From sequence record OR515477.1: a stretch of 64,000 nt of DNA; one strand, written 5' to 3'. Shown in pieces: positions 5,974-25,144 of this stretch (position 1 is its first letter; every line of letters begins with the position of its first letter). A program made the position numbers and the translations under genes. This DNA is from Escherichia phage Es2. The notes beneath the pieces are model-generated. The model was given only the letters and a program-made list of their open reading frames with translations, was not told the DNA's origin and made no database searches.

Positions 5974-5995
5974 GGACTAAGGGAGTATATAATTA

Positions 5996-7912: not shown

Positions 7913-7919
7913 TTTTAGG

Positions 7920-7953: not shown

Positions 7954-7966
7954 CAAGGAACTCCAA

Positions 7967-8170: not shown

Positions 8171-8171
8171 T

Positions 8172-10253: not shown

Positions 10254-10963
10254 TTAAAGAAGCCGAAAAATTAAAACGTCTCATCCAGCTAGCGCGGGGT
10301 GCTACACAAAAGAGTCTTTCCCAGCTAACTAATGAAGAAAAATATGCAGTAATGTTTTTAGGAGATCATTATCCTGCTAGGTGGGATAAAGGTAAGATCA
10401 AGTATGATCGTGATGCAAAACAAGTTGTTTGGTCAGGCTCATATGTAGAAGTGAATAAAGCATTAAAGGCTTTAGATCCTGAAGCAAAAGGTTTCTCTTC
10501 TAATGCTATTCATATTCTAATTGATGAAGATCTCCCAAGATTTAAGGAAGCATCATTTAAAGAAGCATTAGCTAGTGAAGATCTTATTCCTTTTAAACAC
10601 GGTAAGTATGCACATCTTCCACCACTAGAAAAAGAGAAACCTACTCTAGTTAAAGATGAAGTTTATCGTGGGATTGGCACAATGCTAGCGAGTTTGACTG
10701 TAGCTCTCCATAAAGATCTAGAGTTAACGCCCCTAGAAAACGCTGTGCATTTCATGTGCCATAAGTACGAGGATACATTTAAAGAGCTATGTAAGTCGCT
10801 AGGAATGCCAAGTTACACGATATTAAACTATGCTCCTGAATATACTAGAGCAGCTCGTGGAACTATGGATTACGATGATACAGGATCCACTGCTTCCTAT
10901 TTAGCAACTTATATCTACTTCGCATCCTTAGGTATCAAACTCAAATCCAAGAAGGAGGAATAA
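10250..10963 (+). CDS. hypothetical early protein
   Basis: 237 aa ORF, last gene before the repeat region. Confidence 0.45.
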   Translation: MIKEAEKLKRLIQLARGATQKSLSQLTNEEKYAVMFLGDHYPARWDKGKIKYDRDAKQVVWSGSYVEVNKALKALDPEAKGFSSNAIHILIDEDLPRFKEASFKEALASEDLIPFKHGKYAHLPPLEKEKPTLVKDEVYRGIGTMLASLTVALHKDLELTPLENAVHFMCHKYEDTFKELCKSLGMPSYTILNYAPEYTRAARGTMDYDDTGSTASYLATYIYFASLGIKLKSKKEE

Positions 10964-10980
10964 AAGTTAACAAAAAGTTC

Positions 10981-11010
10981 TTGCATTCTCATACCCAAAC
11001 ATGTTATAAT
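10981..11010 (+). promoter_or_regulatory. sigma70-type promoter upstream of non-coding transcript
   Basis: TTGCAT, 17 bp spacer, TATAAT. Confidence 0.45.
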
Positions 11011-11017
11011 AATCTCA

Positions 11018-11185
11018 TAGATTAACAACTACTCTAGTTGATTAACTCTAGGGGCGATGATTATTACACGAATGTCTCGTATAGCTTGCGGCCTAGCAAC
11101 AGCGGTATGACGGCATGAGTACTCACGTAATTAATCACGCGCCCACAGGAGAGACTCTCATGAAATTGGGGGTCTCTTTTTCTTT
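11018..11185 (+). ncRNA. candidate small structured RNA (about 165 nt)
   Basis: Bracketed by the promoter at 10981-11010 and a hairpin plus T-tract terminator at 11148-11185; long-range helix GGGGCG/TGATTA with TAATCA/CGCCC; only a 17-codon ORF with weak SD. Confidence 0.3.
11148..11185 (+). terminator. rho-independent terminator
   Basis: AGAGAC...GTCTCT stem followed by TTTTTCTTT. Confidence 0.45.
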
Positions 11186-11269
11186 ATATTATTTAAATAT
11201 TTTTAATGGCAATATCTGTGTTCAAGATGATACACCTGTTGCCGCTCATCTGCTAGGATGGCACAACAC

Positions 11270-11560
11270 TTTCTTCTAGACTCCTAAGTTTCTAGGAATA
11301 GTTGAGCACTAACTCTAGAGTTTACATTAAACTTTAAATCTGTTTCTCTAGTCAACTCAGGCGGTTTTCATATTCCTAGAAACTCTAGCAATAGGCGGTT
11401 AATACAGGGCGGTTTTAGGGAGGGCGGTTATTTCTAGAAGACATTTTTTGAAAACACATTTCTAGAAATTACTGTCGTATTTGCACACTGCATTTCTAGA
11501 AATTTATGGTCGGATTTGCACAAACGCCTAAGTTTTTAGGAACATATAATCTCTTGAAAA
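11270..11560. repeat. TTCTAGAA palindrome cluster and CCTAAGTTTYTAGGA repeats
   Basis: At least 4 copies of ATTTCTAGAA(A) and 4 copies of the ctRAGTTTYTAGRA element. Confidence 0.6.
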
Positions 11561-12080
11561 TGGCAGCATTATTTCGGGCCGAAGGCCCGTGATTGCCTGA
11601 GTTTTTAGAGCCACAAGAATTTTCACTTGTCAAGCTATTTTGCCCCATTTAGCAAATAAAATTTTACTTTATCTCCTCTAATCTCAAATTAACCCAAATC
11701 TTCTCAACTCTTCCCCAAAATACCCGCAAATCAGGTGCTCCGCACCAAACATGCGCCTCTCCCACAGTTCCCCCAAAATTTCTCTCGCTCTCTCAACTTC
11801 TCCCCAAACATACACAATCACACACCCTCCAATCGAAGCCACAAAAATCTTGTCGGATTCGCACATCTTAATCCTAGAAAAACCGTGTCGGATTTGCACA
11901 TACCCCACAGGATTCGAACGCAGTTCGAGATTGCTGGAGTTTTTAGGAAAATTCATTGTCGGATTCGCACACTATAAAAATTTTTCGGGTCGGATTTGCA
12001 CACTACCAAAAATTGTCGGATTCGCACATACACGCCCGCACGTAACACCCGTGGAGCAATGTCGGATTTGCACAAAAGCG
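11470..12080. repeat. dispersed 14-mer repeat GTCGGATT(T/C)GCACA, about 8 copies
   Basis: Copies near 11476, 11508, 11852, 11886, 11958, 11988, 12013 and 12058 with irregular spacing. Confidence 0.65.
11690..11830. repeat. C/A-rich low-complexity tract with CCCCAAAA-type repeats
   Basis: Strong strand compositional bias; repeated tCCCCAAAa units. Confidence 0.5.
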
Positions 12081-12099
12081 CAGGGCAATTGCCCTGCGC

Positions 12100-12310
12100 T
12101 AAATGAGAATAAAAATAAGAATCATTCTCATTTAGAAAGCGGAATGAGAATGATAATAATTCGCATTTAGAAAGCGAAATGAGAATCAATCTCATTTAAG
12201 AACGGAAACGAAAATTATTCAGGAAGTGAAACGATTCTCATTTAGAAAGTGGAATGATTCTCATTTAGAAAGTGGAATGCAAATGATAATGATTCGCATT
12301 TAAGAATGGA
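12100..12310. repeat. tandem array of ATTCTCATTTAGAAAG(Y)GGAATGA units with embedded inverted repeats
   Basis: About 5 direct repeat units plus AAATGAGAAT/ATTCTCATTT palindromic cores. Confidence 0.65.
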
Positions 12311-12333
12311 AGTGAGAAACACTGTTATTTAAG

Positions 12334-12415
12334 TTATCCACAGACTTATCAACAGCACGATTTGACTTGACAAAATTCTAGCCATTTTGAGGCGTTATCA
12401 ACAGACTTATCAACA
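12334..12415. promoter_or_regulatory. cluster of DnaA-box-like sites
   Basis: TTATCCACA (12334-12342) matches the DnaA box consensus TTATNCACA; TTATCAACA at 12346, 12395 and 12407. Confidence 0.45.
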
Positions 12416-12423
12416 GCTTATCC

Positions 12424-12443
12424 TACTGTATAAATATACAGTA
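12424..12443. promoter_or_regulatory. LexA (SOS) box-like palindrome
   Basis: TACTGTATAAATATACAGTA, CTGT-N8-ACAG, 18 of 20 match to TACTGTATATATATACAGTA. Confidence 0.45.
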
Positions 12444-12636
12444 TTCCTATGCAGTGAATAATTCTAATATACAGCTAAAACGCTCTCAAACGCATTCTAA
12501 CGCGTTTAATTTTGGTGGGGATACTAAAACACGGGCAAAATTGGAGGAGGCTTAGAAATTAGTTAGCTCGCTAACGATCACACAAGGCGACACGTAACAT
12601 CCTAACCATTAGCAGGCTAACCATCGCGGGCGCGGT

Positions 12637-12659
12637 CAAATGAGAATGATTCTCATTTG
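12637..12659. repeat. perfect 22 bp palindrome
   Basis: CAAATGAGAATGATTCTCATTTG, same core as the 12.1-12.3 kb array. Confidence 0.55.
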
Positions 12660-12809
12660 AGAATTGGGGGCACTTCCTGATAGTTGCGCCCCGTGATTAT
12701 TACAGTAGTGGGCAACCTTTACGCTTTGCCCATTCCCGCCACTCATCTTGATGTCTAGACTTGCGACGGCGTACTAAAAACCATTTATACCAGTGATTAA
12801 ACCATCGTT

Positions 12810-13013
12810 TCATAAATCCTCCTCCGGTAGTCGGTGCGTGATTTTTTCCTCCTCTCCGTAGGAATCCACTAAATGCTGATAATAACCATCGTGATCATAA
12901 ATCACTTTATCATATTCGCCACGCTCGACCGCTTGTCGGTTTTCCGGCGTATCTGGCACGTAAAAAACATCAACCATTGTACTGATTTTGGTTACAACAA
13001 TTTTATTGCTCAT
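12810..13013 (-). CDS. hypothetical small acidic protein (67 aa)
   Basis: RBS GGAG upstream of ATG; inside higher-GC cassette. Confidence 0.4.
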   Translation of the reverse strand: MSNKIVVTKISTMVDVFYVPDTPENRQAVERGEYDKVIYDHDGYYQHLVDSYGEEEKITHRLPEEDL

Positions 13014-13038
13014 AATAACGCTCCGTTATTATATAATC

Positions 13039-13383
13039 TCATTGTGCCACCTTTCGAAACGCTGTTTCAATACTTTCCGCAGTTGACTGAATATACGCGC
13101 CTTTCATGATCAGGCGCTCAGTGCATACCTTACGGAAGATATTAATAAAATCATCTTCATTTTCTGCAATTAACGCTTCACCCATAACCTGAACGTCACA
13201 AGATGCAAAGGTCAAAAATTGAAACGCTAGTTCACGGGCAACGACCTCATTGATTTTATAATGCGCCTTGCCCTCATAAATATTAATAACGCCCTTATAT
13301 GTTGGGGAAAGCTGATTTAAATAATTTGCTAATAATGCTGGGCGGCAATTAGCAATAAAACGATTGCCTTCATAAATAACCAT
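13039..13383 (-). CDS. hypothetical protein (114 aa)
   Basis: Start set at the ATG with RBS GGGAGG 6 nt upstream (MVIYEGNRF); ORF track start is 13398. Confidence 0.4.
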   Translation of the reverse strand: MVIYEGNRFIANCRPALLANYLNQLSPTYKGVINIYEGKAHYKINEVVARELAFQFLTFASCDVQVMGEALIAENEDDFINIFRKVCTERLIMKGAYIQSTAESIETAFRKVAQ

Positions 13384-13510
13384 TTGACAGCCTCCCAATT
13401 AGATAGCCAGATAATAACATAAAGATCCCCAATGAAAGGGGGTCATTTTTAAATAGGGTGGCGGTAAAACCGCCAGCCATTGCAAGGATGATAACAATAA
13501 CGCTTTTCAT
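13367..13510 (-). CDS. small two-segment hydrophobic peptide (47 aa), not in ORF track
   Basis: MKSVIVIILAMAGGFTATLF...LSLGIFMLLSGYLIG; ATGA overlap with upstream stop. Confidence 0.3.
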
Positions 13511-13719
13511 AGTACCCCACGAAACGCAGCGTAAAAGGTGGCAAAATGTTTAACTGTTTCAGCTATCACGTTGCCGCGCTTGTCAAATTTCTTTTCTGTA
13601 ACACGAAAGGCATTCTTATTACGTGCTACATATTCAATTTTACAATCTTCCCGCTCGAACGTGTTAACATCCACCAGCTTAAAGCCTTTCGAACGTGCAA
13701 GAGAAACATTGCGGATCAT
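13507..13719 (-). CDS. hypothetical basic protein (70 aa)
   Basis: RBS AGGAGAA upstream of ATG. Confidence 0.4.
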   Translation of the reverse strand: MIRNVSLARSKGFKLVDVNTFEREDCKIEYVARNKNAFRVTEKKFDKRGNVIAETVKHFATFYAAFRGVL

Positions 13720-13721
13720 TT

Positions 13722-13871
13722 TTATTCTCCTTTACTAGTCATGCAGCCCAGCAGATAAGAAAATGCAGCGATACCCGCGCCAATAATAACCGCGTGAACA
13801 CCGAAAGCTATTGCAAAAAGGGATAAAATAGCGCCCAAGATACCTGCTAGAATAGCTCGAAAAATAACCAT
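13722..13871 (-). CDS. small two-segment hydrophobic peptide (49 aa), not in ORF track
   Basis: MVIFRAILAGILGAILSLFAIAFGVHAVIIGAGIAAFSYLLG; RBS AGGAGA 7 nt upstream. Confidence 0.3.
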   Translation of the reverse strand: MVIFRAILAGILGAILSLFAIAFGVHAVIIGAGIAAFSYLLGCMTSKGE

Positions 13872-13917
13872 TTTCATTCTCCTAGTTTGCGGGGCGAAAG
13901 TAACGCCCCGTTATTAC

Positions 13918-14158
13918 TTACATTAAAACAATTTTTGCCGCTTGTTTTTTAGTACAGTGTTCCGCTTTCAGGGTATCCAGCAAAAAGCCGGCCGTTTGCT
14001 GATCGATTTTATCGGCGTTGTATAGTTCTTGGATGGTGTTATAAGTTTTAGCAATGCCGAACTCCTGCACCATTTCATGAATGATGGCGCGATTAGATAC
14101 CCAGCCTTGCGCGGTGAACAGATGACTAGCAGAAGAATAAGCAACCATTTTAAACCTC
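13918..14158 (-). CDS. hypothetical protein (80 aa)
   Basis: Start set at the ATG with RBS GGAGG upstream (MVAYSSASHLF); ORF track start is 14181. Confidence 0.4.
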
Positions 14159-14266
14159 CAAATTTTTGGGAAAATTTTCAACCGTCCTCAAACGGTGTAA
14201 AGGCATTATAACAAAAAAGGTCGCCATAAAAGGCGACCTTTACAAAACTTTACATTAGATTATTTA

Positions 14267-15277
14267 TTACTCGTTTTCGGTGTTAGTGGTAAAAGTAGAA
14301 ATATCGATACCTTTTACCATTTCATCAATCATTTCAGCGATGTTAAAACTTTGCACCATTTCCAACATTGCCGCTTCCATAGCTGCCCCTGCTACCGCTT
14401 TCGCTTTCTGGTTGCTTGGGGCATACTGGTCAACCGCTACGCTCAGCAGGTTGGCAATTACTACTCGACCGATAGGCGTATCAATATAACCTTTAATCAT
14501 GAACGGTGCTTTTTTAGCCGCTACTTTCGTAATTTGAGTCAGTGCAATTTTACCCGCTTCCAGTTTTGCAGCGTTTACAACGGCGGATTTATTAGCGGCA
14601 ACGATGTTAGCAATCTTGGTCATGGTATTTTTTCCTTTATTTTCAGTGATTTGAGTATTAACGCTTTGAGTGTTAGAATTTACAGCATGGTTTTCTACGC
14701 TGTCAATAATCTGATCTTCATCTTTCCAGAAAGAAAAACCAGCGCTTTCTATATCCCCATCATAAATATACGGGTATAGCTCCCGTGGTAACAAAAAATT
14801 ACCGTCGCCATCAAAAGCCATTATACCGGTATATTGAGATCCGTCGTTATCCGGCTTATACCATCCAGCGGGTAAATACTTCCAGATAACATCTAAAAAT
14901 CCCTCAATGCTAGAAAGTCCATTTATCAGATCAAGCCCAATAAGCTCAAAACCATTTATATTAAATGATTGACGGCCTGAATTGCTATGATACGCAACAA
15001 TAGTATTGCCCTGCGCAACAATAAAATCGGTATCCGGCCCCGCTCCCCTGCCCGTAAAGATATGGCAATCCCGATTATGTAAAACTAGCGTTGCCCCTTG
15101 CTTATATAAGGGTAGAAAACTATCCATATCATAGGCGTCATATTCATCAAAAAAGTTTTGATGAATAGTTTCAACCTTGTTAATAAAATGTTTAATGCTG
15201 GTTGACTTGCTACCGTCCAGCAGGTTACGCAATGCACCTTTTAAGACGGTTGCGTTATCTGGTTTATAAAGCCTCAT
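14267..15277 (-). CDS. hypothetical protein (336 aa), first gene of the inverted-repeat-flanked cassette
   Basis: Strong RBS GAGGAGG 7 nt upstream; Gly/Asp-rich N-terminal half and Ala/Lys-rich helical C-terminal half; no recognised catalytic motif. Confidence 0.5.
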   Translation of the reverse strand: MRLYKPDNATVLKGALRNLLDGSKSTSIKHFINKVETIHQNFFDEYDAYDMDSFLPLYKQGATLVLHNRDCHIFTGRGAGPDTDFIVAQGNTIVAYHSNSGRQSFNINGFELIGLDLINGLSSIEGFLDVIWKYLPAGWYKPDNDGSQYTGIMAFDGDGNFLLPRELYPYIYDGDIESAGFSFWKDEDQIIDSVENHAVNSNTQSVNTQITENKGKNTMTKIANIVAANKSAVVNAAKLEAGKIALTQITKVAAKKAPFMIKGYIDTPIGRVVIANLLSVAVDQYAPSNQKAKAVAGAAMEAAMLEMVQSFNIAEMIDEMVKGIDISTFTTNTENE

Positions 15278-15541
15278 TTGTTCGGCCTCCTCGTTAATCG
15301 GTGAGTGAATGATAAAGGTATTTTCTTTCTAGGGGCAAATATTATTTTACCTTTTTATTTTCTTTGCCTAACTCCTAGTTTTATGCTAATCGCGCAGCGG
15401 TACAGTAAAGAGCAAAACACGGCGAAGCCACCAGGGCGACGGGTGAAGGCTTTACTTTAATATTACCCCACTGCATTTAGCTCGTTAGAAAGCGATTTAG
15501 GCCGCTTAAAATTGATTGCAGTTGTTAACACTACCTTTTTA

Positions 15542-15561
15542 CCCTGTATATTTATACAGTA
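15542..15561. promoter_or_regulatory. LexA (SOS) box-like palindrome
   Basis: CTGTATATTTATACAG, CTGT-N8-ACAG. Confidence 0.45.
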
Positions 15562-15569
15562 GGATAACC

Positions 15570-15651
15570 TGTGGATAAGTCTGTGTAAAAGTCCTTATAT
15601 CGCCGCCTATCATGTCAAGTTATTTTACAAAATGTATAAGTCTGTGGATAA
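15570..15651. promoter_or_regulatory. DnaA-box-like sites
   Basis: TGTGGATAA at 15570-15578 and 15643-15651, reverse complement of TTATCCACA. Confidence 0.45.
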
Positions 15652-15841
15652 CTTAAATAATAGTGTTTCTCACTAACTAATTTATGCAGTTATTATATCG
15701 TAAAATATAGTTAGTTGGCTAATAGGATTTTAAAGTGATTATGAGTCCGCTAATTAAACCTGAAAAACTCATTAGCTAGTCTGCTAATCATTTTGATATA
15801 ATATAATAGAGATTAAATTAATAACATAAGGAAACAATTAG

Positions 15842-16360
15842 ATGCCTAAATATAAACATATAGATTATGACCTTTTTAATAGTTACTTTTATTATGATGA
15901 AACATCGTTATCATTTTTACGCTGGCGAGAAGATCATGCCATCGCTGGTGGTTTAAATGGTAATTATTGGCAAGTTGAATTATTAGATAAAGGACAATTC
16001 AAAGTACATAGAATTATTTTTTGTATAATGAATGGTGGTATAGATAGCGAGCTAATGATTGATCATATTGATCGTAACCCCCGTAATAATAACATTTGGA
16101 ATCTTCGCGCGGTTGATAGTTCCCAGAATAACTATAATAAGACTCCTAGTGAGTATGAAAACTATAAGCGTGCTAATGGTATCCCTAGAAACATTTACGT
16201 TAATAAAATTCGCCCCCGTGATAGTTTCGGGCGTGATTATTTAACTGCTCAAATTAAGAATCCTATTACTAACAAGCGTGTTAGTAAGTCTGGTTATGAT
16301 TTACAAGAGTTATTATTATGGCTTGAAGCTAAAAAAGCTGAATTCGGAATTGTCAATTAA
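15842..16360 (+). CDS. HNH homing endonuclease (HNH_3-type)
   Basis: IDHIDRNPRNNNIWNLR motif; sits in an AT-rich islet within the higher-GC region. Confidence 0.6.
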   Translation: MPKYKHIDYDLFNSYFYYDETSLSFLRWREDHAIAGGLNGNYWQVELLDKGQFKVHRIIFCIMNGGIDSELMIDHIDRNPRNNNIWNLRAVDSSQNNYNKTPSEYENYKRANGIPRNIYVNKIRPRDSFGRDYLTAQIKNPITNKRVSKSGYDLQELLLWLEAKKAEFGIVN

Positions 16361-16384
16361 TTTATTTTATAAATTAACTCGTTT

Positions 16385-16416
16385 AGTCTTGATTTTTAAA
16401 AGTCAAGACCTTTTTC
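16385..16416 (+). terminator. rho-independent terminator
   Basis: AGTCTTGA-loop-TCAAGAC followed by CTTTTT. Confidence 0.5.
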
Positions 16417-16585
16417 AACTATTTTTCAATTTTGCGGTTGTTAAATATTTGTTAAACCGAAAATAAGCCGCCTAAAACGCCCCAGAACGCGATGAAAGTT
16501 TTAGTCATGCCATTGCATTGCCTACCCTCGTTTATCGCTACCACGAGCTTTTTAGATTTTGTCAAGTAGGGGAAAGCAAATATAA

Positions 16586-16876
16586 ATGAAAAAATTACTT
16601 GCCTATCTGCTATGTTTTGTGGTATTCACGCGCCCGTTTCTTTTAATTTTAGTGTGCCGCGCCCTAGTCGCCGCACGCCGTCCGGTGAATCGTGTCTTTA
16701 CGTTTCTTTACAAAAATAAGGTTGCGCCATTTTCGGGAATCCCCTATTATTTATCACGTAGGGCGGCAATGACGAACTACACGGCGGGAAGTTTACCGCC
16801 ACGCTCTTTAAAAATTGGGTATATCTTAAAGCCTATCGGCGGTAAACTTATTCATTATAAGGAATCGACGATATGA
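16586..16876 (+). CDS. hypothetical protein (96 aa)
   Basis: ORF with weak RBS and unusual Arg-rich hydrophobic composition. Confidence 0.25.
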   Translation: MKKLLAYLLCFVVFTRPFLLILVCRALVAARRPVNRVFTFLYKNKVAPFSGIPYYLSRRAAMTNYTAGSLPPRSLKIGYILKPIGGKLIHYKESTI

Positions 16877-17076
16877 AACAAACGCTTTTGATAACTGGTA
16901 AACCAGCTAAAAAATTAGATGGTACTACTAAAAAATTGTTGACAGTAGCGCAAAGATCCATAAGATATAGATTCACGCAGTACAAGAAAGGCCGCCAGCA
17001 AGGTTTAGAAATGATCTGGCGAAATATTATGATTGACCTGAAAGAAAATCATAAAAAACTGCAAAAAATTGTTTGA
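16873..17076 (+). CDS. hypothetical basic protein (67 aa)
   Basis: RBS AAGGA upstream. Confidence 0.3.
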   Translation: MKQTLLITGKPAKKLDGTTKKLLTVAQRSIRYRFTQYKKGRQQGLEMIWRNIMIDLKENHKKLQKIV

Positions 17077-17306
17077 CACCCTAGCCGATAGGCTTTAAGA
17101 TGTACCCAGTTCGATGAGAGCGATAACTTGATACAATTTGACGGTCGGTGCTTACCATAATGCATCCCGCCCCCTAACTGGGATATAGCGGCCTGAGTGG
17201 AGTTCTTTAAATTGATTATAATGGCGAGCGGATTGTTACTTATTACCTGCTACTATTTTCTAGTAGGTAATGCGAAACAATCCCCTAAATAACTGGAGTT
17301 TATACT

Positions 17307-17558
17307 ATGCAAAACGTTACTAATGCGCCGAAAATTGGTCAATCCGTTTTTATCCCTTTCGTTACCAAAACGGATGAATTAACCGGAAAAGCCGAACGTA
17401 TTAAAGGTGCGGCGCTTATGCCGTTCGATACAATCGACGCGGTATACGCTGAAAATGAACGCAGTAACAACGGCAAGCCGATTTATAACGTTCGCGTTAA
17501 ATCCGGCGACGTTGTAAAGGTTGTTCAACGCAACGAAAAATGGGAAGCTGTACTGTAA
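17307..17558 (+). CDS. pre-early-type hypothetical protein (83 aa)
   Basis: Conserved TCCCCTAAAT leader plus GGAG SD; followed by perfect hairpin at 17574-17599. Confidence 0.45.
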   Translation: MQNVTNAPKIGQSVFIPFVTKTDELTGKAERIKGAALMPFDTIDAVYAENERSNNGKPIYNVRVKSGDVVKVVQRNEKWEAVL

Positions 17559-17656
17559 TCTAGTGTTAACTTTATATTCCCCTGAAATATGGGGAATATA
17601 ACGATTAACATTAGTTAATCATAATCCCTTAAATTAAACTAATAGGAGTTTATATC

Positions 17657-18064
17657 ATGACTAACGCAAAAACCGCAAAATTCGCATGGAATGAAGAAAA
17701 CACCCAAAAAGCTGTTACCATGTACCAGCAGTTAATCAACGAAAACGGTTTAGATTTCGCAAATAGTGACGGGCTGAAAGAGATTGCAAAAGCAGTAGGC
17801 GCGGCTTCTCCCGTATCCGTTCGCTCAAAATTGACCAGTGCAAAAGCCTACCAGAAAAGCGATAAGCCGCGTAAAGTTGGCGGCGGCAGTTCTGTACGCA
17901 AAGCGCATTATGTGCGTGTTATTGCTAAACATGCCATTGATTCCGGCATTATCAAAGACGCTGACGATCTGGCATCACTGGAAAGTGCAAAACTTGAAAC
18001 GCTGGACGCGGTAGCGCAATTGCTAGGCGTTGCCGATGAAGTGAAACAAGCCGCAGGCGAATAA
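17657..18064 (+). CDS. pre-early-type hypothetical protein (135 aa)
   Basis: AATCCCTTAAAT leader plus GGAG SD. Confidence 0.45.
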   Translation: MTNAKTAKFAWNEENTQKAVTMYQQLINENGLDFANSDGLKEIAKAVGAASPVSVRSKLTSAKAYQKSDKPRKVGGGSSVRKAHYVRVIAKHAIDSGIIKDADDLASLESAKLETLDAVAQLLGVADEVKQAAGE

Positions 18065-18153
18065 TAGTTATACATTGCCCTTCCTAGTGGGAGGGCAATA
18101 ATATAACTGTTTAGCGATAGTTATTTTCTTCCCTTAAATCAGGAGTTTTAAAA

Positions 18154-18351
18154 ATGATTTTCTTTCCTACTGAATCATTAATTTTAGGCTTGTTTATTAT
18201 GGCGGCCTCATTATTGTTCGCTTATTTTCAAAATGATTTAGATTCATATTATTTTAAACGTAAATCTAAGTTAGCAAAGCGTTTAGGTCTGATTTGTTTT
18301 ATTGCCGCCGTTGCTTGTGGTGTTAGTTCTAGCCTTATGCCTTTAAATTAA
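18154..18351 (+). CDS. small membrane protein (65 aa)
   Basis: TCCCTTAAAT leader; two hydrophobic segments. Confidence 0.4.
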   Translation: MIFFPTESLILGLFIMAASLLFAYFQNDLDSYYFKRKSKLAKRLGLICFIAAVACGVSSSLMPLN

Positions 18352-18447
18352 TGTTGCAAATTATAACGCCTATTATTCAAGGCGTTATATTTGGCAATAT
18401 TTGCCAATAACAAACGTTTTTTAATCCCTTTAATGGAGTTTATTACT

Positions 18448-20112
18448 ATGATTATTTCCGCAGAAAAACAAACCGTTATCCTGAAAATGGCCGCTGACTT
18501 TAATTTCTATGGTAAACGTCTGCGCGCCACTAAACTGGAGGTCTGCGACGATATATCAAAAGCGGTCTACGATACAACAAAACACTCGACCGCCATTTGT
18601 GATTGGCTGGAAGCAAATAAACCAGTTAAACCAAAAGCTGCAAAAGTAGCAAAAGCTATTAAAAACGATGAGCGCCCCGAAGCGGCTGGGATCGTTTCTA
18701 GCACGGTTGAACAGTGGGAAGTAAAACAAGGCAAACGCTTTATTATTACGTCGATTCAGAATAATACTTTCCCGCATAAAAACTTTTTGGCCTCGCTTGA
18801 ACAGTATGCTAAATACATCGGCGCTGATTTGCTTGTTTCTAAGTATATTTATAATAAAAACGGCTTCCAAAATGGTGAAGGTGCGGATGGAATCAAATAT
18901 GATTCCGCGTTCGATAAGTATATTTGCAGCAAAAACGTGTTTTTAAACAACCGCCGTTTTGCTTTCATGGCTGAAATTAACGTTTTGCCTACCGCAGATT
19001 ATCCGCTTTCTGGATTCGCTGAAACTGCAACGGCGCTTAATCTTGAAGGTCTGGCAATTGGTCACGCTAAAATCACCGCCGAAAGCGTGCCAGCTTTAAA
19101 AGGTGAAGTAGTACGCCGCATGTACTCAACCGGAACGGCAACGCTAAAAAACTACATTCAGCAGAAAGCAGGGCAAAAAGCGGAAGCGCTGCATAACTTC
19201 GGTGCGCTGATTGTTGAGTTCGACGAAGACGGTGAGTTTTTTGTACGCCAGCTTGAAACAATGGACGAAAGCGGGGTGTTTTATGATCTGAATGTTTGCG
19301 CTACTCCCGCAGGATGCTATGAAACATCGGGGCATGTTTTAGGTTTACAATATGGCGACATCCACGCAGAAAAATTAGATGATGATTGTGCCGTTGCGTC
19401 ATGGGCTGGCGAAAATAGCTTGCTTGATATTCTTAAACCAAAATATCAGTTTATCCATGACGTTCACGATTTTACATCTCGCAATCATCATAATCGTGCG
19501 TCCGGTGTATTCCTAGCGAAACAGTACGCCGCCGGACGTGATAAAGTTCTGGATGATCTTATCGATACGGGGCGCGTGCTGGAATCAATGGAACGTGATT
19601 TTAGTCAAACGATCATTGTTGAATCGAATCACGATTTGGCGCTATCCCGTTGGCTGGATGATCGTAATGCTAACATTAAAGACGATCCAGCAAACGCCGA
19701 ACTATATCACCGCCTGAATGCTGCAATTTACGCGGCAATCGGTGAACACGACGAAACGTTTAACGTGTTAGATTATGCGCTGCGCAAGGTTGCAGGTTGC
19801 GAGTTTAACGCCATTTTCCTAACAACTGACCAATCATTTAAAATTGCAGGCATCGAGTGTGGCGTACACGGTCACAACGGCATTAACGGAAGCCGTGGCA
19901 ATCCTAAACAGTTTAAGAAATTGGGCAAACTGAACACGGGGCATACGCATACGGCAAGCATTTACGGCGGGGTATACACCGCTGGCGTGGCTGGTAGTCT
20001 GGACATGGGTTACAACGTTGGCGCGTCAAGCTGGACGCAAACGCATTTAATTACCTATGCAAACGGTCAGCGCACTTTGATTGACTTTAAAAACGGTAAA
20101 TTCTTTGCGTAA
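18448..20112 (+). CDS. A1: A1-like pre-early protein with calcineurin-like metallophosphatase motifs
   Basis: 554 aa from the ATG at 18448 (T5 A1 about 556 aa, from memory); GDIH, GHNG and GHTH motifs; AATCCCTTTAAT leader. Confidence 0.55.
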   Translation: MIISAEKQTVILKMAADFNFYGKRLRATKLEVCDDISKAVYDTTKHSTAICDWLEANKPVKPKAAKVAKAIKNDERPEAAGIVSSTVEQWEVKQGKRFIITSIQNNTFPHKNFLASLEQYAKYIGADLLVSKYIYNKNGFQNGEGADGIKYDSAFDKYICSKNVFLNNRRFAFMAEINVLPTADYPLSGFAETATALNLEGLAIGHAKITAESVPALKGEVVRRMYSTGTATLKNYIQQKAGQKAEALHNFGALIVEFDEDGEFFVRQLETMDESGVFYDLNVCATPAGCYETSGHVLGLQYGDIHAEKLDDDCAVASWAGENSLLDILKPKYQFIHDVHDFTSRNHHNRASGVFLAKQYAAGRDKVLDDLIDTGRVLESMERDFSQTIIVESNHDLALSRWLDDRNANIKDDPANAELYHRLNAAIYAAIGEHDETFNVLDYALRKVAGCEFNAIFLTTDQSFKIAGIECGVHGHNGINGSRGNPKQFKKLGKLNTGHTHTASIYGGVYTAGVAGSLDMGYNVGASSWTQTHLITYANGQRTLIDFKNGKFFA

Positions 20113-20166
20113 TTAAATTATTACCCTAGCGGCTTGAAATACAGCCGCTATTATAGGAGTCAAAAA

Positions 20167-20424
20167 ATGAAAGTTACATTACCCAAAACATTAGACGAAA
20201 AAGCGTTTATTTCCCCCGATGAAATGGAATCCGATAAAGTTTACAGCTTCGGGCCTATCCTAGCCGCCAAAACTAATACTGATGGAATTATTACAGTCGA
20301 TTATCGTGATAATGATATTGTTCCCTTTGACGATGATGACGCTTTTTACGAGTGGTTAAGCGATAATAATTTACCCGTAAGTGGTGAATTAACGCCGTAT
20401 CAGATGCAAATCATTATCAAATAA
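20167..20424 (+). CDS. pre-early-type hypothetical acidic protein (85 aa)
   Basis: Start at ATG with RBS GGAG upstream (MKVTLPK). Confidence 0.4.
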   Translation: MKVTLPKTLDEKAFISPDEMESDKVYSFGPILAAKTNTDGIITVDYRDNDIVPFDDDDAFYEWLSDNNLPVSGELTPYQMQIIIK

Positions 20425-20463
20425 TTTAAATCCCCTTATTAAACTAATTGGAGTTTTATAACT

Positions 20464-20856
20464 ATGAAAAAGCAAAATATCCCATTCGACCGCGCTCAGT
20501 CCTCAATTGTTCTGGTTTATTCCAACGGCGAACGTTACCACGTCGAGGCGGGGCACGTTATTGATGACCTATTAGATTTCAATGACGCTTTGCAGGTTAC
20601 TACCTTTGCATATACGCAGGGCAAACTAACCAGCCATATTAAAGCAAAAGGCGTTTATGTTGACACGGTGAAACAAGAAACGATTATCATCGACGCCGTA
20701 AAATCCGGCCTAGCCTTTGCAGTTGTCGCGCCTTGCCTCGCTTGCCTTGATGATCAATTGATTAGTGCAAAGGTCTACACATGTGCGGGGATTCGTTCTA
20801 GCGTATCCGGTGAGGATGTTAGTTTTATCGCTGATGCGTTGGCTTATGGTCTTTAA
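20464..20856 (+). CDS. pre-early-type hypothetical protein (130 aa), possible A2-like
   Basis: AATCCCCTTATTAAA leader plus GGAG SD; A2 assignment is a guess from size and position only. Confidence 0.35.
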   Translation: MKKQNIPFDRAQSSIVLVYSNGERYHVEAGHVIDDLLDFNDALQVTTFAYTQGKLTSHIKAKGVYVDTVKQETIIIDAVKSGLAFAVVAPCLACLDDQLISAKVYTCAGIRSSVSGEDVSFIADALAYGL

Positions 20857-20936
20857 TAGTTGATTTATTATTGCCCGCTTATAAATAGCGGGTAATGCTG
20901 AATTAATCTAATCCCTTAAATGGAGAACGTAACAAA

Positions 20937-21671
20937 ATGAGTCAAGTTAAAACGAATATTACCCGCTCTTTCCCGCATATTTCCCGCGTTATGATTTGGG
21001 ATCTGGACGGCACTATCATTAATTCTTTCCATCGTGTAGCGCCTTGTTTTGATAGCGAGGGCAATTTAGATTTAAATAAATATAAAAATGAAGCCTGCAA
21101 ACATCATTTAATAATGCAGGATTCATTATTGCCATTAGTTGAATATATGCGCCAGTGTATGAATGACGCTAACACGTTAAACATTATTTGCACCGCTCGA
21201 CTGATGAGCAAGTCAGATTATTATTTCTTGCGTAAACAAGGATTGCGGGGGCGTGGAAATAGCAATATCCGCGTGTTTTCCCGCGATACCCTGCACAAAT
21301 ACTTTAAAGCTGATAAAGTTAGCGAGATATACCACAGTAAGGACGCAGTTTATAAATCTTATTATTTTGAATTATTTAAACAATTATATCCGAACGCTGA
21401 TTTTACAATGATTGATGATCATAAAGGCGTGTTAGCGGCGGCGGCATCATACGGATTTAAAACGCTGGACGCACAAGCCGTTAACGATATTCTATCAATC
21501 GGTGTTACATTGATTGGTGAAACCTTTATTGATGAATCGCTCGACGATGATAATGATTATCAGTTCCTAGCAGACCGCCTGCAATTATGTTGGGAAGGTA
21601 TGACCGAGGAAGAACGCGCAGAATATAGTTGCAGTCCTCAACAGTACATCGAGAAATTAAAAGTTGCATAA
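20937..21671 (+). CDS. dmp: 5'-deoxyribonucleotidase (HAD superfamily), Dmp-like
   Basis: 244 aa, same length as T5 Dmp (from memory); WDLDGTI HAD motif I; AATCCCTTAAAT leader. Confidence 0.65.
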   Translation: MSQVKTNITRSFPHISRVMIWDLDGTIINSFHRVAPCFDSEGNLDLNKYKNEACKHHLIMQDSLLPLVEYMRQCMNDANTLNIICTARLMSKSDYYFLRKQGLRGRGNSNIRVFSRDTLHKYFKADKVSEIYHSKDAVYKSYYFELFKQLYPNADFTMIDDHKGVLAAAASYGFKTLDAQAVNDILSIGVTLIGETFIDESLDDDNDYQFLADRLQLCWEGMTEEERAEYSCSPQQYIEKLKVA

Positions 21672-21828
21672 TAATTAAAGTTGAAATAGTCACGGTGTGT
21701 AATGATAACATGCCGTGACTATTAGTCTGCTAAGTACCGGGCGGTAATGAGACTCATTCTCATCTGGTGGGCCACTGGACACACCTCCATGTGTAATCTT
21801 ATGAAATTTGGCAAAAAGGTAATTAGCG

Positions 21829-22032
21829 CTATTTACGGACTGACTGCTCAAAGACTTCCCGCCACAGAGGGTCAGTCTTAACTAGATTATTAATATGCTC
21901 AATAGCTTCATCAAATCTCATGAATCCTTCCGGGATTTCCGAAGACTTAGGAAAAACTTGCAGCATCTCCTGTGTGATACCCATCTTTTCAAGATCTTCT
22001 TGGGTTAACTTAAACTGTCCGAATTCTTTCAT
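21829..22032 (-). CDS. hypothetical protein (67 aa)
   Basis: ORF with stop/start overlap to upstream gene. Confidence 0.4.
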   Translation of the reverse strand: MKEFGQFKLTQEDLEKMGITQEMLQVFPKSSEIPEGFMRFDEAIEHINNLVKTDPLWREVFEQSVRK

Positions 22033-22274
22033 GAACTTCTCCTGTCTACCGGCTTATCTCCAGATTCTGACATACGAAATCTCTTTCGTGACGCCCGAGA
22101 ACCGTCCGCCCACTCCCTCTCAAACTCCGCACGTTTCTTCGCAAACCTCCGCTCTCTTTCCGCAATCTCCCGCGACACTTCCGCAATATATTTACGATGC
22201 GTATTAATAGCCGCAGTCATTCCGAAAACTCCCGCGATTACCCCGATAATAAAAGCAATTACAATACTAAACAT
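22029..22274 (-). CDS. small N-terminal-TM protein with charged C-terminus (81 aa)
   Basis: MFSIVIAFIIGVIAGVFG TM then Arg/Glu-rich helix. Confidence 0.4.
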   Translation of the reverse strand: MFSIVIAFIIGVIAGVFGMTAAINTHRKYIAEVSREIAERERRFAKKRAEFEREWADGSRASRKRFRMSESGDKPVDRRSS

Positions 22275-22461
22275 CTAGTTCTCTCTCAATTTGCAGAATA
22301 CGAGTGCTATCACAACGTTGCAATTCTACTAATTTTTCTATAGCAAATTGTTGTTGTTTTACCTGGGCCTCTAGAGTTTTTAGGCGAACGTACACGGTGT
22401 AAGAAATAATGAAAGCTGACCAAACTGCTAGTACTATTAATATAGCTACTACTTCCATCAT
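22267..22461 (-). CDS. small N-terminal-TM coiled-coil protein (64 aa), paralog family
   Basis: MMEVVAILIVLAVW TM; overlapping start/stop with neighbours. Confidence 0.4.
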   Translation of the reverse strand: MMEVVAILIVLAVWSAFIISYTVYVRLKTLEAQVKQQQFAIEKLVELQRCDSTRILQIERELDV

Positions 22462-22565
22462 TTACGTTTCTCCAGTAACAGAGTTTCAATTCTAGCTAAG
22501 TGGTTATCTAAAATACATTGCCCGATAATCACAATCCCTAGTAGTGCAATAATTACCCATTCCAT
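22458..22565 (-). CDS. small N-terminal-TM peptide (35 aa), paralog family, not in ORF track
   Basis: MEWVIIALLGIVIIG...RIETLLLEKRK, similar to the N-terminus of the next ORF. Confidence 0.3.
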   Translation of the reverse strand: MEWVIIALLGIVIIGQCILDNHLARIETLLLEKRK

Positions 22566-22720
22566 TGTTTACGCTCCTCTAATAAAATTTCAATCCTAGA
22601 TAATCTGTTACTCAACTGCATTAATTTAGCTTCTACTTGTGTTATAGAGGTATCTATTACACGTAAGCCTACAAAGAGAAGTATCAGTAAGATGAATATG
22701 CCAATAATTACCCATTCCAT
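22553..22720 (-). CDS. small N-terminal-TM coiled-coil protein (55 aa), paralog family
   Basis: Start set at MEWVIIGIFILLILLF; RIEILLEERK C-terminus. Confidence 0.35.
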   Translation of the reverse strand: MEWVIIGIFILLILLFVGLRVIDTSITQVEAKLMQLSNRLSRIEILLEERKQWNG

Positions 22721-22848
22721 TAAATCCACCCCGCCATAGCTGCTAACCAAAAACCTACGAAAATAAAGAATAGGATAGTTCCGAACCCAAAACTATTTAT
22801 CCAGCTATCATATACCTCTCCACGTCTGCTCTTTCTTTTGTTTGACAT
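22720..22848 (-). CDS. small C-terminal-TM peptide (42 aa)
   Basis: Start set at the ATG with GGAG 8 nt upstream (MSNKRKSRR...); basic N-terminus then hydrophobic tail. Confidence 0.3.
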   Translation of the reverse strand: MSNKRKSRRGEVYDSWINSFGFGTILFFIFVGFWLAAMAGWI

Positions 22849-23024
22849 ATCTTTCATGCTCCTATAAATGTGATTTTTGAAATATTCTATAATTTGTGCA
22901 CAACCGACCATGCCTGTGAACTCATAGAAGGACTTCTACTTTTCTTACATAGTGGTTTCTGCCAATATACCATCCAAGAAATAAAAAATTTAGTTTACTT
23001 GGATGTCTTTTTGTTTTATACTAA

Positions 23025-23291
23025 TTACAGGTAATTAGATTGCTCTAGTTTAAATTTACAATCACCGTATTTAAGGTCAAACTGACTGAGATCCCACCAC
23101 CCAAACTTAGTACGGAGCTGTACTACTGGAAAGCGATCTCCCTTAATACGAACTTTTTGAACCTTGAGGCCGTAATGTTCCTCTCCAGCACCACCAAAAG
23201 ATTTTACAAACCCCGTACAAAATGGTTTGGGGGCAGGTGCACAACCAGATAACATAACTGCGGCAACTAGTGCAATCACAAACTTTTTCAT
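23025..23291 (-). CDS. llp: lipoprotein, Llp-like (receptor-blocking lipoprotein)
   Basis: Signal peptide with lipobox LSGC; divergently transcribed from the adjacent RBP gene as in the T5 llp/oad pair. Confidence 0.55.
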   Translation of the reverse strand: MKKFVIALVAAVMLSGCAPAPKPFCTGFVKSFGGAGEEHYGLKVQKVRIKGDRFPVVQLRTKFGWWDLSQFDLKYGDCKFKLEQSNYL

Positions 23292-23376
23292 ATTTATCTC
23301 TCCATTTCTAATTTATGAATCTATTATAGCAAAATAGAGAGATGAAAGCAAATACATTTTTATAATAGGAGATTAT
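23292..23376. promoter_or_regulatory. divergent promoter region for llp and RBP genes
   Basis: AT-rich 85 bp with TATAAT-like hexamers on both strands and SD sequences for both genes. Confidence 0.35.
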
Positions 23377-25134: not shown

Positions 25135-25144
25135 AGGAGGAAAT

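Follow-up and report, generated by a model that had tools for sequence, protein, structure and literature searches.

Organization of the terminal repeat region

The analysed stretch of Escherichia phage Es2 DNA (sequence record OR515477.1, 64,000 nucleotides; hereafter, the window) contains at positions 11610-21794 a block that is identified by sequence comparison as the terminal repeat (~10.2 kb) of a T5-like phage (Tequintavirus). Within it lie the pre-early genes dmp, A1 and A2 together with the injection-stop region (Table 1); early genes adjoin it on the left, and the late/receptor-binding end on the right. The T5 repeat spans T5 1-10219. According to blastn, T5 108-10608 is collinear with the window at 85-93% identity, T5 position 108 corresponding to window position 21687 and T5 position 10608 to window position 11221, and the MM-1 LTR (1-10407) maps onto the same span as the T5 repeat. 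The DNA identity of the block to T5-like terminal repeats was 88-93%. The label "pre-early/terminal-repeat-type" of the preliminary description is thus borne out by T5 synteny and DNA identity.

The genes dmp, A1 and A2 were found in the conserved order adjoining the genome terminus, dmp being the closest to it, and the core block was present and syntenic across all lineages examined, without a patchy distribution. Only a single repeat copy lies in the window. It adjoins early genes at one end and late genes at the other, as expected if the two copies were collapsed during assembly; in relatives deposited with both genome ends, two places match the block. In T5, the left repeat copy is known from the literature as the first-step-transfer (FST) DNA, which enters alone. 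The two-step DNA entry, with a second step dependent on A1 and A2, is taken from the T5 annotation and the literature (PMC10644984; bioRxiv 10.1101/866236).

Table 1. Features of the terminal repeat region of phage Es2 (positions in the window)
Feature	Position	Strand	Basis or remark
iss (injection-stop, non-coding)/repeat region 3	11221..12689	.	85-86% identity to T5 9279-10608
Leftward pre-early operon (homologues of T5.017, T5.015, T5.014, T5.013, T5.012, T5.011)	12810..15277	-	T5 synteny, PHROG 4227, Pfam DUF7566
T5.014 homologue (Ung-dependent endonuclease)	13507-13719	-	T5 synteny
T5.011 homologue (DUF7566)	14267-15277	-	Pfam, synteny
Divergent promoter region, AT-rich	15278..15841	.	34% GC; T5 annotates pre-early promoters at the homologous site
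HNH gene	15842..16360	+	Pfam HNH_3, E = 1.4e-12
Small pre-early ORFs: orf96, T5.008 and T5.007 homologues	16586..17558	+	orf96: phrog_17446
T5.008 homologue	16873-17076	+	Contains all three AGA codons of the pre-early class
T5.007 homologue	17307-17558	+	
A2 DNA-binding protein	17657..18064	+	phrog_1725, E = 8e-52; T5 annotation
T5.005 homologue, small membrane protein	18154..18351	+	phrog_4820
A1 DNA transfer protein, 556 aa	18442..20112	+	phrog_1745, E = 5e-245
T5.003 and T5.002 homologues (pre-early)	20134..20856	+	T5 synteny; phrog_4576
dmp, deoxynucleoside-5'-monophosphatase	20937..21671	+	T5 annotation, synteny, phrog_415

The outer portion of the iss/repeat region 3 segment extends past the repeat boundary (T5 annotates iss at 9140-10149). 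Its GC content is ~40% and its CpG odds ratio ~1.07, and no codon periodicity was detected in the ORFs within it. The genes of the leftward operon have a GC3 of 0.33-0.44 and use AGA for none of their 26 Arg codons. The lowest 500-bp GC window of the entire sequence (29.4%) falls in the divergent promoter region, as does the sole CCWGG of the repeat (position 15431). The HNH gene, correctly singled out earlier as an AT-rich exception in the block (32.6% GC, GC3 24.3%), includes the sole EcoRI site of the repeat (position 16340); few T5-like phages are known to have this insert (Davison 2020). Promoter P-H22 of T5 is overlapped by T5.008, and A2 is annotated in T5 as required in second-step transfer. 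The A2 gene of Es2 has a GC of 47.1% and a GC3 of 0.426. The T5.005 homologue is an exception in GC3 (0.242), yet it has no AGA, ATA or CTA codons. Within the block, GC reaches its local maximum in A1, which shares 97-99% identity with annotated A1 proteins (GC3 0.42; AGA 0/21 Arg codons).

Base composition

The block had been described as 8-10 points higher in GC than the backbone. Positions 12300-21700 contain 39.95% GC versus 38.50% in the remainder, and this difference of +1.45 points lies inside the spread of same-size windows, among which the block ranks 59th of 546 (SD 0.96 points). With the true repeat boundaries, the values are 40.07% and 38.46%. For 60-bp lines at 12.7-15.3 kb, 43-55% GC had been claimed; their mean is 40.9% (range 26.7-55.0), the region as a whole has 40.7% GC, and lines with at least 43% GC account for 34% there versus 29% window-wide. 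The GC content of A1 is 44.6% rather than ~48%, and that of late genes is 39.3% (~38% had been given for structural genes). Equally high peaks were found outside the block at 48.7-50 kb (0.46-0.48) and at 30-31 kb (0.44). Sliding-window GC revealed no significant whole-window shift, the result that the preliminary description had itself named as speaking against its claim, and the claim of a bulk GC excess therefore fails. In T5 itself, the LTR has 40.0% GC versus ~39.1% in the unique region. The first-injected DNA is not a GC island; its G+C content only just exceeds that of the remainder. The sharp compositional discontinuity is real, being located in GC3, codon usage and dinucleotide signature rather than in bulk GC.

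Codon usage of the pre-early genes

The GC3 of the pre-early genes is 39.5% versus 27.2-32.2% elsewhere (Mann-Whitney p = 2.6e-6; contiguous-block test, z = 6.4), and GC1 and GC2 are equal between the two groups. Among Arg codons, AGA occurs in 3 of 88 cases in pre-early genes and in 206 of 683 elsewhere (p = 1.4e-9); ATA (7.9 vs 23.9%) and CTA (12.2 vs 22.8%) follow the same direction. In the four-fold boxes, G/C-ending codons make up 44.9% in pre-early genes and 21.1% elsewhere (p = 7e-51). The two-fold Y families are unshifted, and AAG and GAG are lower in the pre-early genes (a move of the two-fold R families away from GC), which excludes a uniform GC pressure.

The codon match to the host suggested earlier was supported. 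The RSCU of the pre-early genes correlates with that of average E. coli genes at r = 0.68, versus r = -0.02 for the other phage genes, and all other 16-gene blocks reach at most 0.085 (contiguous-block test, z = 11). The shares of AGA and ATA (3.4% and 7.9%) are close to those of E. coli (3.5% and 7.1%). The change at the repeat edges is sharp: between 0 and 4 rare codons per 100 were counted in 14 of the 16 repeat genes, with the T5.013 homologue at 4.0 and the T5.008 homologue at 7.6, versus 5-13 in most flanking genes. The CAI is modestly higher (0.43 vs 0.34-0.40, p = 0.01). The highly expressed late capsid gene (29845-31221) also shuns AGA, ATA and CTA (0.7 per 100 codons, CAI 0.74); thus, rare-codon avoidance extends beyond the first-injected genes, and a high expression level by itself could contribute to it.

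The same codon signature was seen in T5, in BF23 and in relatives from Pectobacterium, Proteus, Klebsiella and Vibrio. The share of AGA among Arg codons in pre-early versus other genes is 5 vs 42% in My1, 15 vs 56% in the Proteus phage, 3.6 vs 19% in the Klebsiella phage, 11 vs 25% in the Vibrio phage, 7 vs 28% in T5 and 4 vs 22.5% in BF23. The Klebsiella phage shows no GC3 difference at all (47.1 in pre-early genes vs 47.6 in others), which indicates that GC is an incidental by-product. The core genes hold this signature even where A1 identity is just 31-42%.

It is possible, although we give it limited credence, that strict tRNA timing is involved, so that pre-early genes avoid the codons of phage tRNAs, whose genes arrive in the second step; the complementary proposal that later genes use those codons once phage tRNAs are present is just as tentative. 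With the T5 tRNA set as reference (the Es2 tRNA region itself lies outside the window), rare codons that have a phage tRNA (AGA, ATA, CTA, GGA) make up 2.7% in pre-early genes and 6.3% in others (p = 5e-13), and those that have none (AGG, CGA, CGG, CCC) 1.2% and 1.1%. Codons readable by host tRNAs only amount to 38.0% versus 29.5% (p = 2e-7), and the lack of a shift in the two-fold Y families, which phage and host tRNAs decode alike, agrees with such timing. In addition, T5 has its tRNA genes (among them Arg-UCU, Leu-UAG and Ile2) at 28-41 kb, outside the repeat. However, BF23 is without tRNA-Arg(UCU), Ile2 and Gly(UCC), and its later genes still use AGA (22.5%), ATA (22.2%) and GGA (27.6%), so phage tRNAs are not what permits these codons. 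Moreover, AGA and ATA are shunned by the genes of the capsid and tail tube, which are expressed late, although phage tRNAs are present by then, and G-ending codons readable by phage UNN tRNAs are also low in later genes. Consequently, the "no phage tRNAs yet" component of the explanation is unproven.

Dinucleotide signature

The repeat has a CpG odds ratio of 1.37, the remainder one of 0.70. Between 12 and 22 kb, each 2-kb window gives a value of 1.13-1.52, and all other windows give 0.46-0.91. The repeat thereby overshoots the host (E. coli, 1.11). At codon boundaries, CpG has an O/E of 1.32 in pre-early genes and 0.74 in others (E. coli 1.06). GCGC occurs at 1.5 times the codon-shuffle expectation in the pre-early genes of the window and at 0.65 times in the others, and its density in the repeat is 4-7 times higher in all six lineages. 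The delta* distance between the repeat and the remainder is 199, versus an average of 44 among pieces of the remainder.

The richness in CpG, GpC and GCGC might be a DNA-level functional mark of the repeat, which codon usage partly follows, with candidate roles in nicking, packaging, end duplication, or in telling FST from host or second-step DNA. We consider this rather unlikely. The GCGC density, the CpG excess above the host level and the presence of GCGC in the T5 nick consensus speak for it, but most of the enriched CpG-containing words are predicted by the lower-order composition of the repeat, the T5 repeat has just one major nick, and a CpG rule cannot yield the AGA/ATA depletion or the AAG/GAG shifts.

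A regional mutational bias is highly improbable. Under this explanation, the repeat, being duplicated at packaging and recombinogenic, would undergo GC-biased gene conversion or another replication/repair regime, with GC and CpG raised there as a result. The compositional step does coincide with the repeat boundaries, and CpG is in excess at codon boundaries as well as inside codons. On the other hand, intergenic GC is not raised in the block (35.9 vs 34.3% outside), the CpG odds ratio of non-coding repeat DNA is just ~1.05, the HNH gene and the T5.005 homologue retain a low GC3, and the Klebsiella phage keeps the codon-specific signature without a GC3 difference. The unshifted two-fold Y families and the decrease in AAG and GAG also contradict a mutational bias.

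The preliminary description had also offered a different evolutionary origin, that is, horizontal acquisition of the pre-early module from a host-like or other phage genome with the donor composition kept. This is very unlikely. The large delta* of the repeat, its somewhat smaller distance to E. coli (127 vs 169 for the remainder) and the turnover of accessory pre-early genes among T5-like phages would agree with it; by comparison with T5, T5.016 is missing from the leftward operon of Es2. However, dmp, A1 and A2 are syntenic in each lineage examined and all carry the signature, and the two-fold R families move against GC. Had the module been acquired long ago, its composition would be expected to have approached that of the phage unless selection maintains the difference. 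Since the core genes are family-wide and keep the signature despite low A1 identity, the claim is unsupported.

Restriction-site avoidance

Palindromic hexamers were found 74 times in the pre-early/repeat DNA versus 112 expected from synonymous shuffling, and 33 of the 64 are absent from the repeat versus 20-27 from other 10-kb windows. Palindrome avoidance is genome-wide (O/E 0.71-0.86), being somewhat stronger in the repeat (0.66). An unbiased, Markov-corrected k-mer screen of the terminal repeats of five lineages against the rest of their genomes gave CCWGG, GGWCC, GGCC, CCGG and CTGAAG as the top under-represented words in the repeats, and not so elsewhere. We take CCWGG to be the recognition word of EcoRII, GGWCC that of Eco47I/SinI and CTGAAG that of Eco57I. 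In these repeats, CCWGG occurs 6 times versus 62.7 expected (O/E in the rest of the genomes 0.77), GGWCC once versus 24.3 (0.43) and CTGAAG twice versus 17.7 (0.95); GGCC has an O/E of 0.46 (0.87). When seven such words were pooled, the pre-early genes of the window contained 24 versus 47.0 expected (z = -4.2), with an O/E of 0.89 elsewhere. Type I sites are also depleted in the repeat. The depletion of recognition words holds under both the synonymous-shuffle and the Markov nulls. Hence, the avoidance of restriction sites proposed in the preliminary description was upheld.

Unlike for CCWGG, no avoidance was found for AGACC and GATC. According to the literature, Tequintaviruses resist type I, II and III systems unless the sites are in the FST region, EcoPI sites in FST are tolerated, and the phage DNA is without Dam/Dcm methylation (PMC10644984; bioRxiv 10.1101/866236). 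The retention of AGACC and GATC alongside the avoidance of CCWGG agrees with these reports.

Proposed explanation

Based on the above results, we suggest that the signatures were probably caused by translational selection and restriction avoidance acting on the first-injected DNA. Expression of dmp, A1, A2 and the accessory pre-early genes would have to rely on intact, unmodified host machinery before the remaining 92% of the genome, phage tRNA genes included, is admitted. Two selective regimes may therefore act on FST DNA, both of which the rest of the genome would escape. Translational selection would favour host-style codons (CGC, GGC, CTG, CCG, ACC, AAA, GAA) and shun AGA, ATA and CTA, possibly enabling host tRNAs to translate these genes quickly while host mRNAs compete for them; this would lift GC3 by ~10 points in an AT-rich phage and not in a GC-richer relative. 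Restriction avoidance would purge from FST DNA the sites of systems common in hosts, because solely FST sites are exposed to restriction in T5-like phages. Such a pattern is as expected for DNA that works before the phage disarms the host. Translation and restriction avoidance do not explain the CpG/GCGC excess; apart from this unexplained feature, the Es2 block newly exemplifies principles that are already known. Thus, the earlier interpretation was largely right in its appeal to selection and wrong in its premise of a large GC excess, and its alternative of a different origin is not supported.

Comparison with known systems

In temporal-class systems, the earliest genes are nearer to the host and later ones are richer in phage-tRNA codons. 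Codon usage by temporal class in T4 was reportedly described by Cowe and Sharp in 1991. In the Es2 window, codon usage also differs significantly between expression classes, but here the boundary is physical (separately entering DNA) and coincides with a dinucleotide and restriction-site boundary, and the contrast in host correlation is unusually strong. Phage codon-usage classes have been found to follow expression time in a study in which T5 is not mentioned (Mioduser, Goz & Tuller 2017, PMC5683454).

The FST region of T5/BF23 is the same element as the Es2 block (terminal repeat, dmp-A1-A2, iss). Only recognition sites in FST expose T5/BF23 to type I/II systems, EcoPI sites being tolerated there and the DNA being unmethylated (Davison & Brunel 1979, cited in PMC10644984; Skutel et al. 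2023, PMC10644984). This published rule predicts both the shortage of CCWGG, GGWCC, CTGAAG and type I sites and the absence of such a shortage for AGACC and GATC. For systems other than EcoRII, Eco47I/SinI and Eco57I, an effect of FST sites on plating has been published (PMC10644984). The accessible T5/BF23 papers count sites for the tested systems. The Es2 repeat has one EcoRI site, in the HNH insert. In these papers, we found neither a statistical family-wide demonstration of repeat-confined site avoidance nor a mention of the codon usage or dinucleotide signature of FST.

The block shares with horizontally acquired islands an abrupt change in codon usage and genome signature over a contiguous stretch. 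Unlike them, it has no bulk GC step, patchy distribution or flanking mobility genes, its sole mobile gene is without the signature of the block, and no other feature of the family's genome architecture is as conserved. An acquired island is not supported, given the GC difference of just +1.45 points and the synteny in all lineages examined.

A related idea comes from the Autographiviridae. The early-injected region is reported to set restriction sensitivity in this family, the leading segment being exposed to restriction before anti-restriction functions act (PMC12455610); the two cases differ in phage family and in entry mechanism.

Identity and Structure of the Terminal Repeat

In a megablast search, the segment 12300-21700 matched 542 records of T5-like phages with 88-93% identity, and these matches were located at genome ends and covered the genes for A1, A2, dmp (deoxynucleoside-5'-monophosphatase) and an HNH endonuclease. 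The boundaries of the repeat were placed by blastn relative to the T5 repeat (T5 1-10219), with T5 position 108 corresponding to 21687 and T5 position 10608 to 11221. The window is a Tequintavirus assembly, reversed in orientation in comparison with T5, and the early genes to the left of the repeat and late genes to the right indicate that its two terminal repeats were collapsed to one copy.

PHROGs confirmed A1, A2, dmp and the Ung-dependent endonuclease. Pfam matches in the repeat were HNH_3 and, for the T5.011 homologue, DUF7566; the Pfam search gave none for A1, A2 and dmp, the identities of which come from PHROGs and homology to annotated genomes. Thus, the pre-early/terminal-repeat-type block of the preliminary description was confirmed by megablast, blastn against T5, PHROGs and Pfam, and the AT-rich islet noticed within it is accounted for by the HNH gene. 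The T5.016 homologue is missing, the homologues of T5.015 and T5.017 being only 26 bp apart, in line with reports that accessory pre-early genes turn over at a high rate. The injection-stop region contains a 139-codon ORF with equal GC content at the three codon positions (0.43/0.44/0.44), which is probably not a gene; many tiny ORFs are annotated in this region of some relatives.

Coordinates of features in the window
Feature	Position	Strand	Remark
Left flank	1-12300		T5-type early genes, e.g., phosphatases, holin, Clp protease
Terminal repeat	~11,610-21,794		single copy
ORF in injection-stop region	11751-12170		139 codons
T5.015-T5.017 interval	13013-13039		no T5.016 homologue
Chi octamer (GCTGGTGG)	13671	-	
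CCWGG site	15431		only one in the repeat; divergent promoter region
HNH gene	15842-16360		mobile, AT-rich
Chi octamer	15944	+	within HNH gene
EcoRI site	16340		only one in the repeat; within HNH gene
T5.008 homologue	16873-17076		
Right flank	21700-40000		receptor-binding protein, terminase, capsid and tail genes
Major capsid gene	29845-31221		
Late gene	48676-50421		581 codons
GC peak	48700-50400		strongest outside the block; within the late gene

Base Composition

An excess of 8-10 GC points over the backbone had been claimed for the block. Based on the computation over the whole window, there was no significant shift: the GC content of 12300-21700 was 39.95% against 38.50% for the rest (40.07 and 38.46% with the true repeat boundaries), which ranked it 59th among 546 windows of the same length (SD 0.96 points). 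The local estimates were also too high, as the 60-bp lines across 12.7-15.3 kb averaged 40.9% instead of 43-55%, and A1 had 44.6% instead of ~48%, with matching peaks elsewhere in the window at 48.7-50 kb and 30-31 kb. In T5, GC was 40.0% in the repeat, ~39.1% in the unique region and, above both, 42.7% in the tail-fibre block. The bulk GC discontinuity was therefore rejected by computation for both the window and T5. Outside the block, GC was highest (0.46-0.48 in 500-bp windows) in a late gene with low GC3 (0.33), which probably encodes a receptor-binding or tail-fibre protein; this peak equals that of A1.

Codon Usage of the Pre-Early Genes

The curated set of 15 pre-early genes (HNH excluded) was compared with the 58 other genes. 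GC3 was 39.5% in the pre-early genes versus 29.9% in the left early block, 27.2% in the late genes and 32.2% in the replication genes, with the same GC1 and GC2 (Mann-Whitney p = 2.6e-6); only 2 of the 58 other genes reached the pre-early median. The G/C-ending codons of the four-fold boxes accounted for 44.9% in the pre-early genes and 21.1% in the others (p = 7e-51), whereas the two-fold pyrimidine-ending families exhibited no shift (35.0 vs 31.3%), and Lys AAG (18 vs 33%) and Glu GAG (25 vs 34.5%) were even lower in the pre-early genes. Intergenic GC was 35.9% in the block and 34.3% outside. The GC3 shift is thus codon-specific rather than a GC drift, and neither biased gene conversion nor a uniform GC pressure is compatible with the two-fold families and the intergenic DNA.

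AGA made up 3 of 88 Arg codons in the pre-early genes and 206 of 683 in the others; ATA (7.9 vs 23.9%) and CTA (12.2 vs 22.8%) were also reduced. The AGA and ATA shares nearly equal those of E. coli (3.5 and 7.1%). When RSCU was correlated with that of 38 ordinary genes of E. coli K-12, r was 0.68 for the pre-early genes and -0.02 for the remaining phage genes. A conservative test, in which the pre-early genes were compared with other runs of 16 contiguous genes, placed them far outside the distribution (z = 6.4 for GC3, -6.5 for rare codons and 11 for the correlation with E. coli). All three pre-early AGA codons are found in the T5.008 homologue (3/5 of its Arg codons; GC3 0.32). The homologous ORF of T5 overlaps promoter P-H22; promoter sequence may thus constrain the T5.008 homologue, or this ORF may be no real gene.

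CAI was rejected as the main discriminator, as it differed only modestly (p = 0.01); the T-ending codons preferred by the later genes are optimal in ribosomal-protein genes. Relative to E. coli ribosomal-protein genes, CAI within the window is highest for the major capsid gene (0.74), which attains it through T-ending codons with low GC3 (0.32), i.e., by a different route to host adaptation than that of the pre-early genes.

The 23-25 tRNA genes of T5 are located at 28-41 kb, that is, in second-step DNA. Rare codons with a T5 tRNA were depleted in the pre-early genes (2.7 vs 6.3% of codons) and those without one were not (1.2 vs 1.1%), in favour of strict tRNA timing, with the pre-early genes avoiding precisely those codons whose phage tRNAs are not yet available. 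This explanation is weakened by BF23, which lacks tRNA-Arg(UCU), tRNA-Ile2(CAU) and tRNA-Gly(UCC) but whose later genes still use AGA, ATA and GGA at shares of 22-28%, and by the late capsid and tail-tube genes, which likewise avoid AGA and ATA. BF23 has tRNA-Gly(GCC) in place of the missing tRNAs, and its later genes use the three codons at almost the T5 level.

Recurrence in Related Phages

In each related phage, the pre-early genes were compared with neighbouring genes.

Pre-early versus neighbouring genes in related phages
Phage	A1 identity	AGA/Arg, %	GC3, %	Other
T5		7.2 vs 27.6	39.2 vs 33.2	CpG odds ratio 1.31 vs 0.76
BF23		4.4 vs 22.5		
Pectobacterium My1	66%	5.0 vs 42.4	43.1 vs 34.3	
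Klebsiella K7_rec19	74%	3.6 vs 19.0	47.1 vs 47.6	ATA 8.8 vs 21.7%; AAG 27 vs 51%
Proteus phage 1	42%	14.9 vs 55.9		
Vibrio JSF12	34%	10.9 vs 24.8		ATA 10.5 vs 28.8%

As the Klebsiella phage, with its GC-richer backbone, retains the codon regime, the rise in GC is incidental. Signature distances between phages were 49-60 for the non-repeat parts and 52-147 for the repeats; judging by these phage-phage distances, the greater divergence of the repeats is the pattern that host tracking would produce.

Restriction Sites in the Repeat

Of the 64 palindromic hexamers, 33 were absent from the repeat, compared with 20-27 in other 10-kb windows. Pre-early genes contained 74 palindromic hexamers versus 112 expected (z = -4.1) from a shuffle in which synonymous codons were permuted inside each class, keeping proteins and codon usage; the other gene classes were depleted less or similarly (O/E 0.71-0.86).

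All 4- to 6-mers were also screened, with Markov correction, over the summed repeats of five independent lineages. The most under-represented word was CCWGG (6 vs 62.7 expected; p = 6e-20), depleted in the repeat of every lineage compared, and GGWCC (1 vs 24.3), CTGAAG (2 vs 17.7), GGCC (O/E 0.46) and CCGG (O/E 0.58) were also at the top; O/E in the non-repeat parts of the same genomes was 0.77, 0.43, 0.95, 0.87 and 0.88, respectively. We take these words to be the sites of EcoRII, Eco47I/SinI-type, Eco57I, HaeIII-type and HpaII-type enzymes, in the same order. In the window, seven such words pooled gave 24 occurrences in the pre-early genes versus 47.0 expected (z = -4.2) and O/E 0.89 elsewhere, and no avoidance of AGACC (EcoPI) or GATC was seen.

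This pattern agrees with the published restriction experiments, in which Tequintaviruses resisted restriction of types I, II and III except where their FST (first-step-transfer) DNA held sites, EcoPI sites in FST DNA were tolerated, and the DNA carried no Dam/Dcm methylation (PMC10644984; bioRxiv 10.1101/866236). Without Dcm methylation, CCWGG sites would be open to EcoRII. By the same FST rule, the HNH insert, with its EcoRI site, would confer EcoRI sensitivity as a cost of carrying a homing endonuclease. The list of purged words can be read as a record of the restriction systems that T5-like phages actually met.

CAGAG was absent from the repeat and occurred 90 times elsewhere, with an expectation of 3.6 within the repeat by the Markov model and of 6.8 by the codon shuffle. 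We do not claim this as a Salmonella-specific StyLTI signal; it is at most suggestive, mostly reflects AGA/TCT depletion and is further weakened by low CAGAG in the repeats of phages from other hosts.

Probable Selection on First-Step-Transfer DNA

The left repeat of T5 is the only part of the genome to enter at first, and its A1 and A2 are needed to admit the remainder (PMC10644984; bioRxiv 10.1101/866236). The best-supported explanation is that FST DNA has been selected for rapid translation by the host apparatus and for the absence of restriction sites. Speed would be favoured in the pre-early genes because they are translated with host machinery alone while host mRNA is still abundant, and restriction sites would be purged because only FST DNA is exposed before the pre-early protective functions act. 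Foreign origin of the block and a regional mutational bias in the repeat, by comparison, are both poorly supported; the tempting reading of the block has to be corrected, as there is neither a GC island nor a sign of foreign origin.

With selection on FST DNA, the evolutionary trace of two-step entry is clean and measurable: the first-entering 8% of the genome would be tuned to host translation and purged of restriction sites, and the other 92% keeps a phage-intrinsic signature conserved across hosts. In engineering T5-like phages for therapy, such sites and rare codons should be kept out of the repeat.

Dinucleotide Signature and GCGC

The odds ratios in the repeat and outside were 1.37 vs 0.70 for CpG, 1.50 vs 1.14 for GpC and 0.77 vs 1.16 for AG/CT. 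In 2-kb windows, the CpG odds ratio was 1.13-1.52 at 12-22 kb and 0.46-0.91 everywhere else, with no such step in GC; in collapsed T5-like assemblies, the limits of the repeat can thus be recognised by the CpG/codon step but not by plain GC. The repeat differed from the remaining sequence by a signature distance of 199, whereas 10-kb pieces of the remaining sequence differed from that sequence by 44 on average (maximum 70). At codon boundaries, CpG O/E was 1.32 in the pre-early genes, 0.74 in the others and 1.06 in E. coli, so codon choice alone is insufficient. The signature is only partially host-like, as the repeat overshoots E. coli in CpG and GpC, and TpA and CpA do not match.

In every lineage, this phage included, the density of GCGC in the terminal repeat was 4-7 times that outside, where the word is avoided; in the window, the repeat had 45 sites versus 6.4 expected from the rest. 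Relative to the codon shuffle, there were 38 vs 25 sites in the pre-early genes (O/E 1.50) and 31 vs 47.5 in the others (O/E 0.65). The CpG/GpC/GCGC excess goes beyond codon adaptation and restriction avoidance and overshoots the host.

GCGC is the core of the annotated nick consensus of T5. It seems rather unlikely that the CpG/GCGC signature is a functional mark, serving as the T5 nicking motif (end processing, repeat duplication) or in discrimination of FST DNA, in which case a pre-early nuclease or protective factor would tell FST DNA from host and second-step DNA. T5 destroys host DNA and spares its own, and how it does so is a long-standing question, on which the excess would offer a concrete handle.

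It has long been known that T5 is sensitive to restriction by way of its first-step DNA, and codon usage differs between temporal classes in T4. Such differences were described in other phages as well (PMC5683454). In the literature searched, we found no description of the Demerecviridae pre-early codon regime, the dinucleotide step or a statistical family-wide purge of sites. The pre-early signature is an unusually clean case of known principles, plus the CpG/GCGC excess.

Chi octamers, too few for interpretation, occurred twice in the 10-kb repeat and twice in the other 54 kb.
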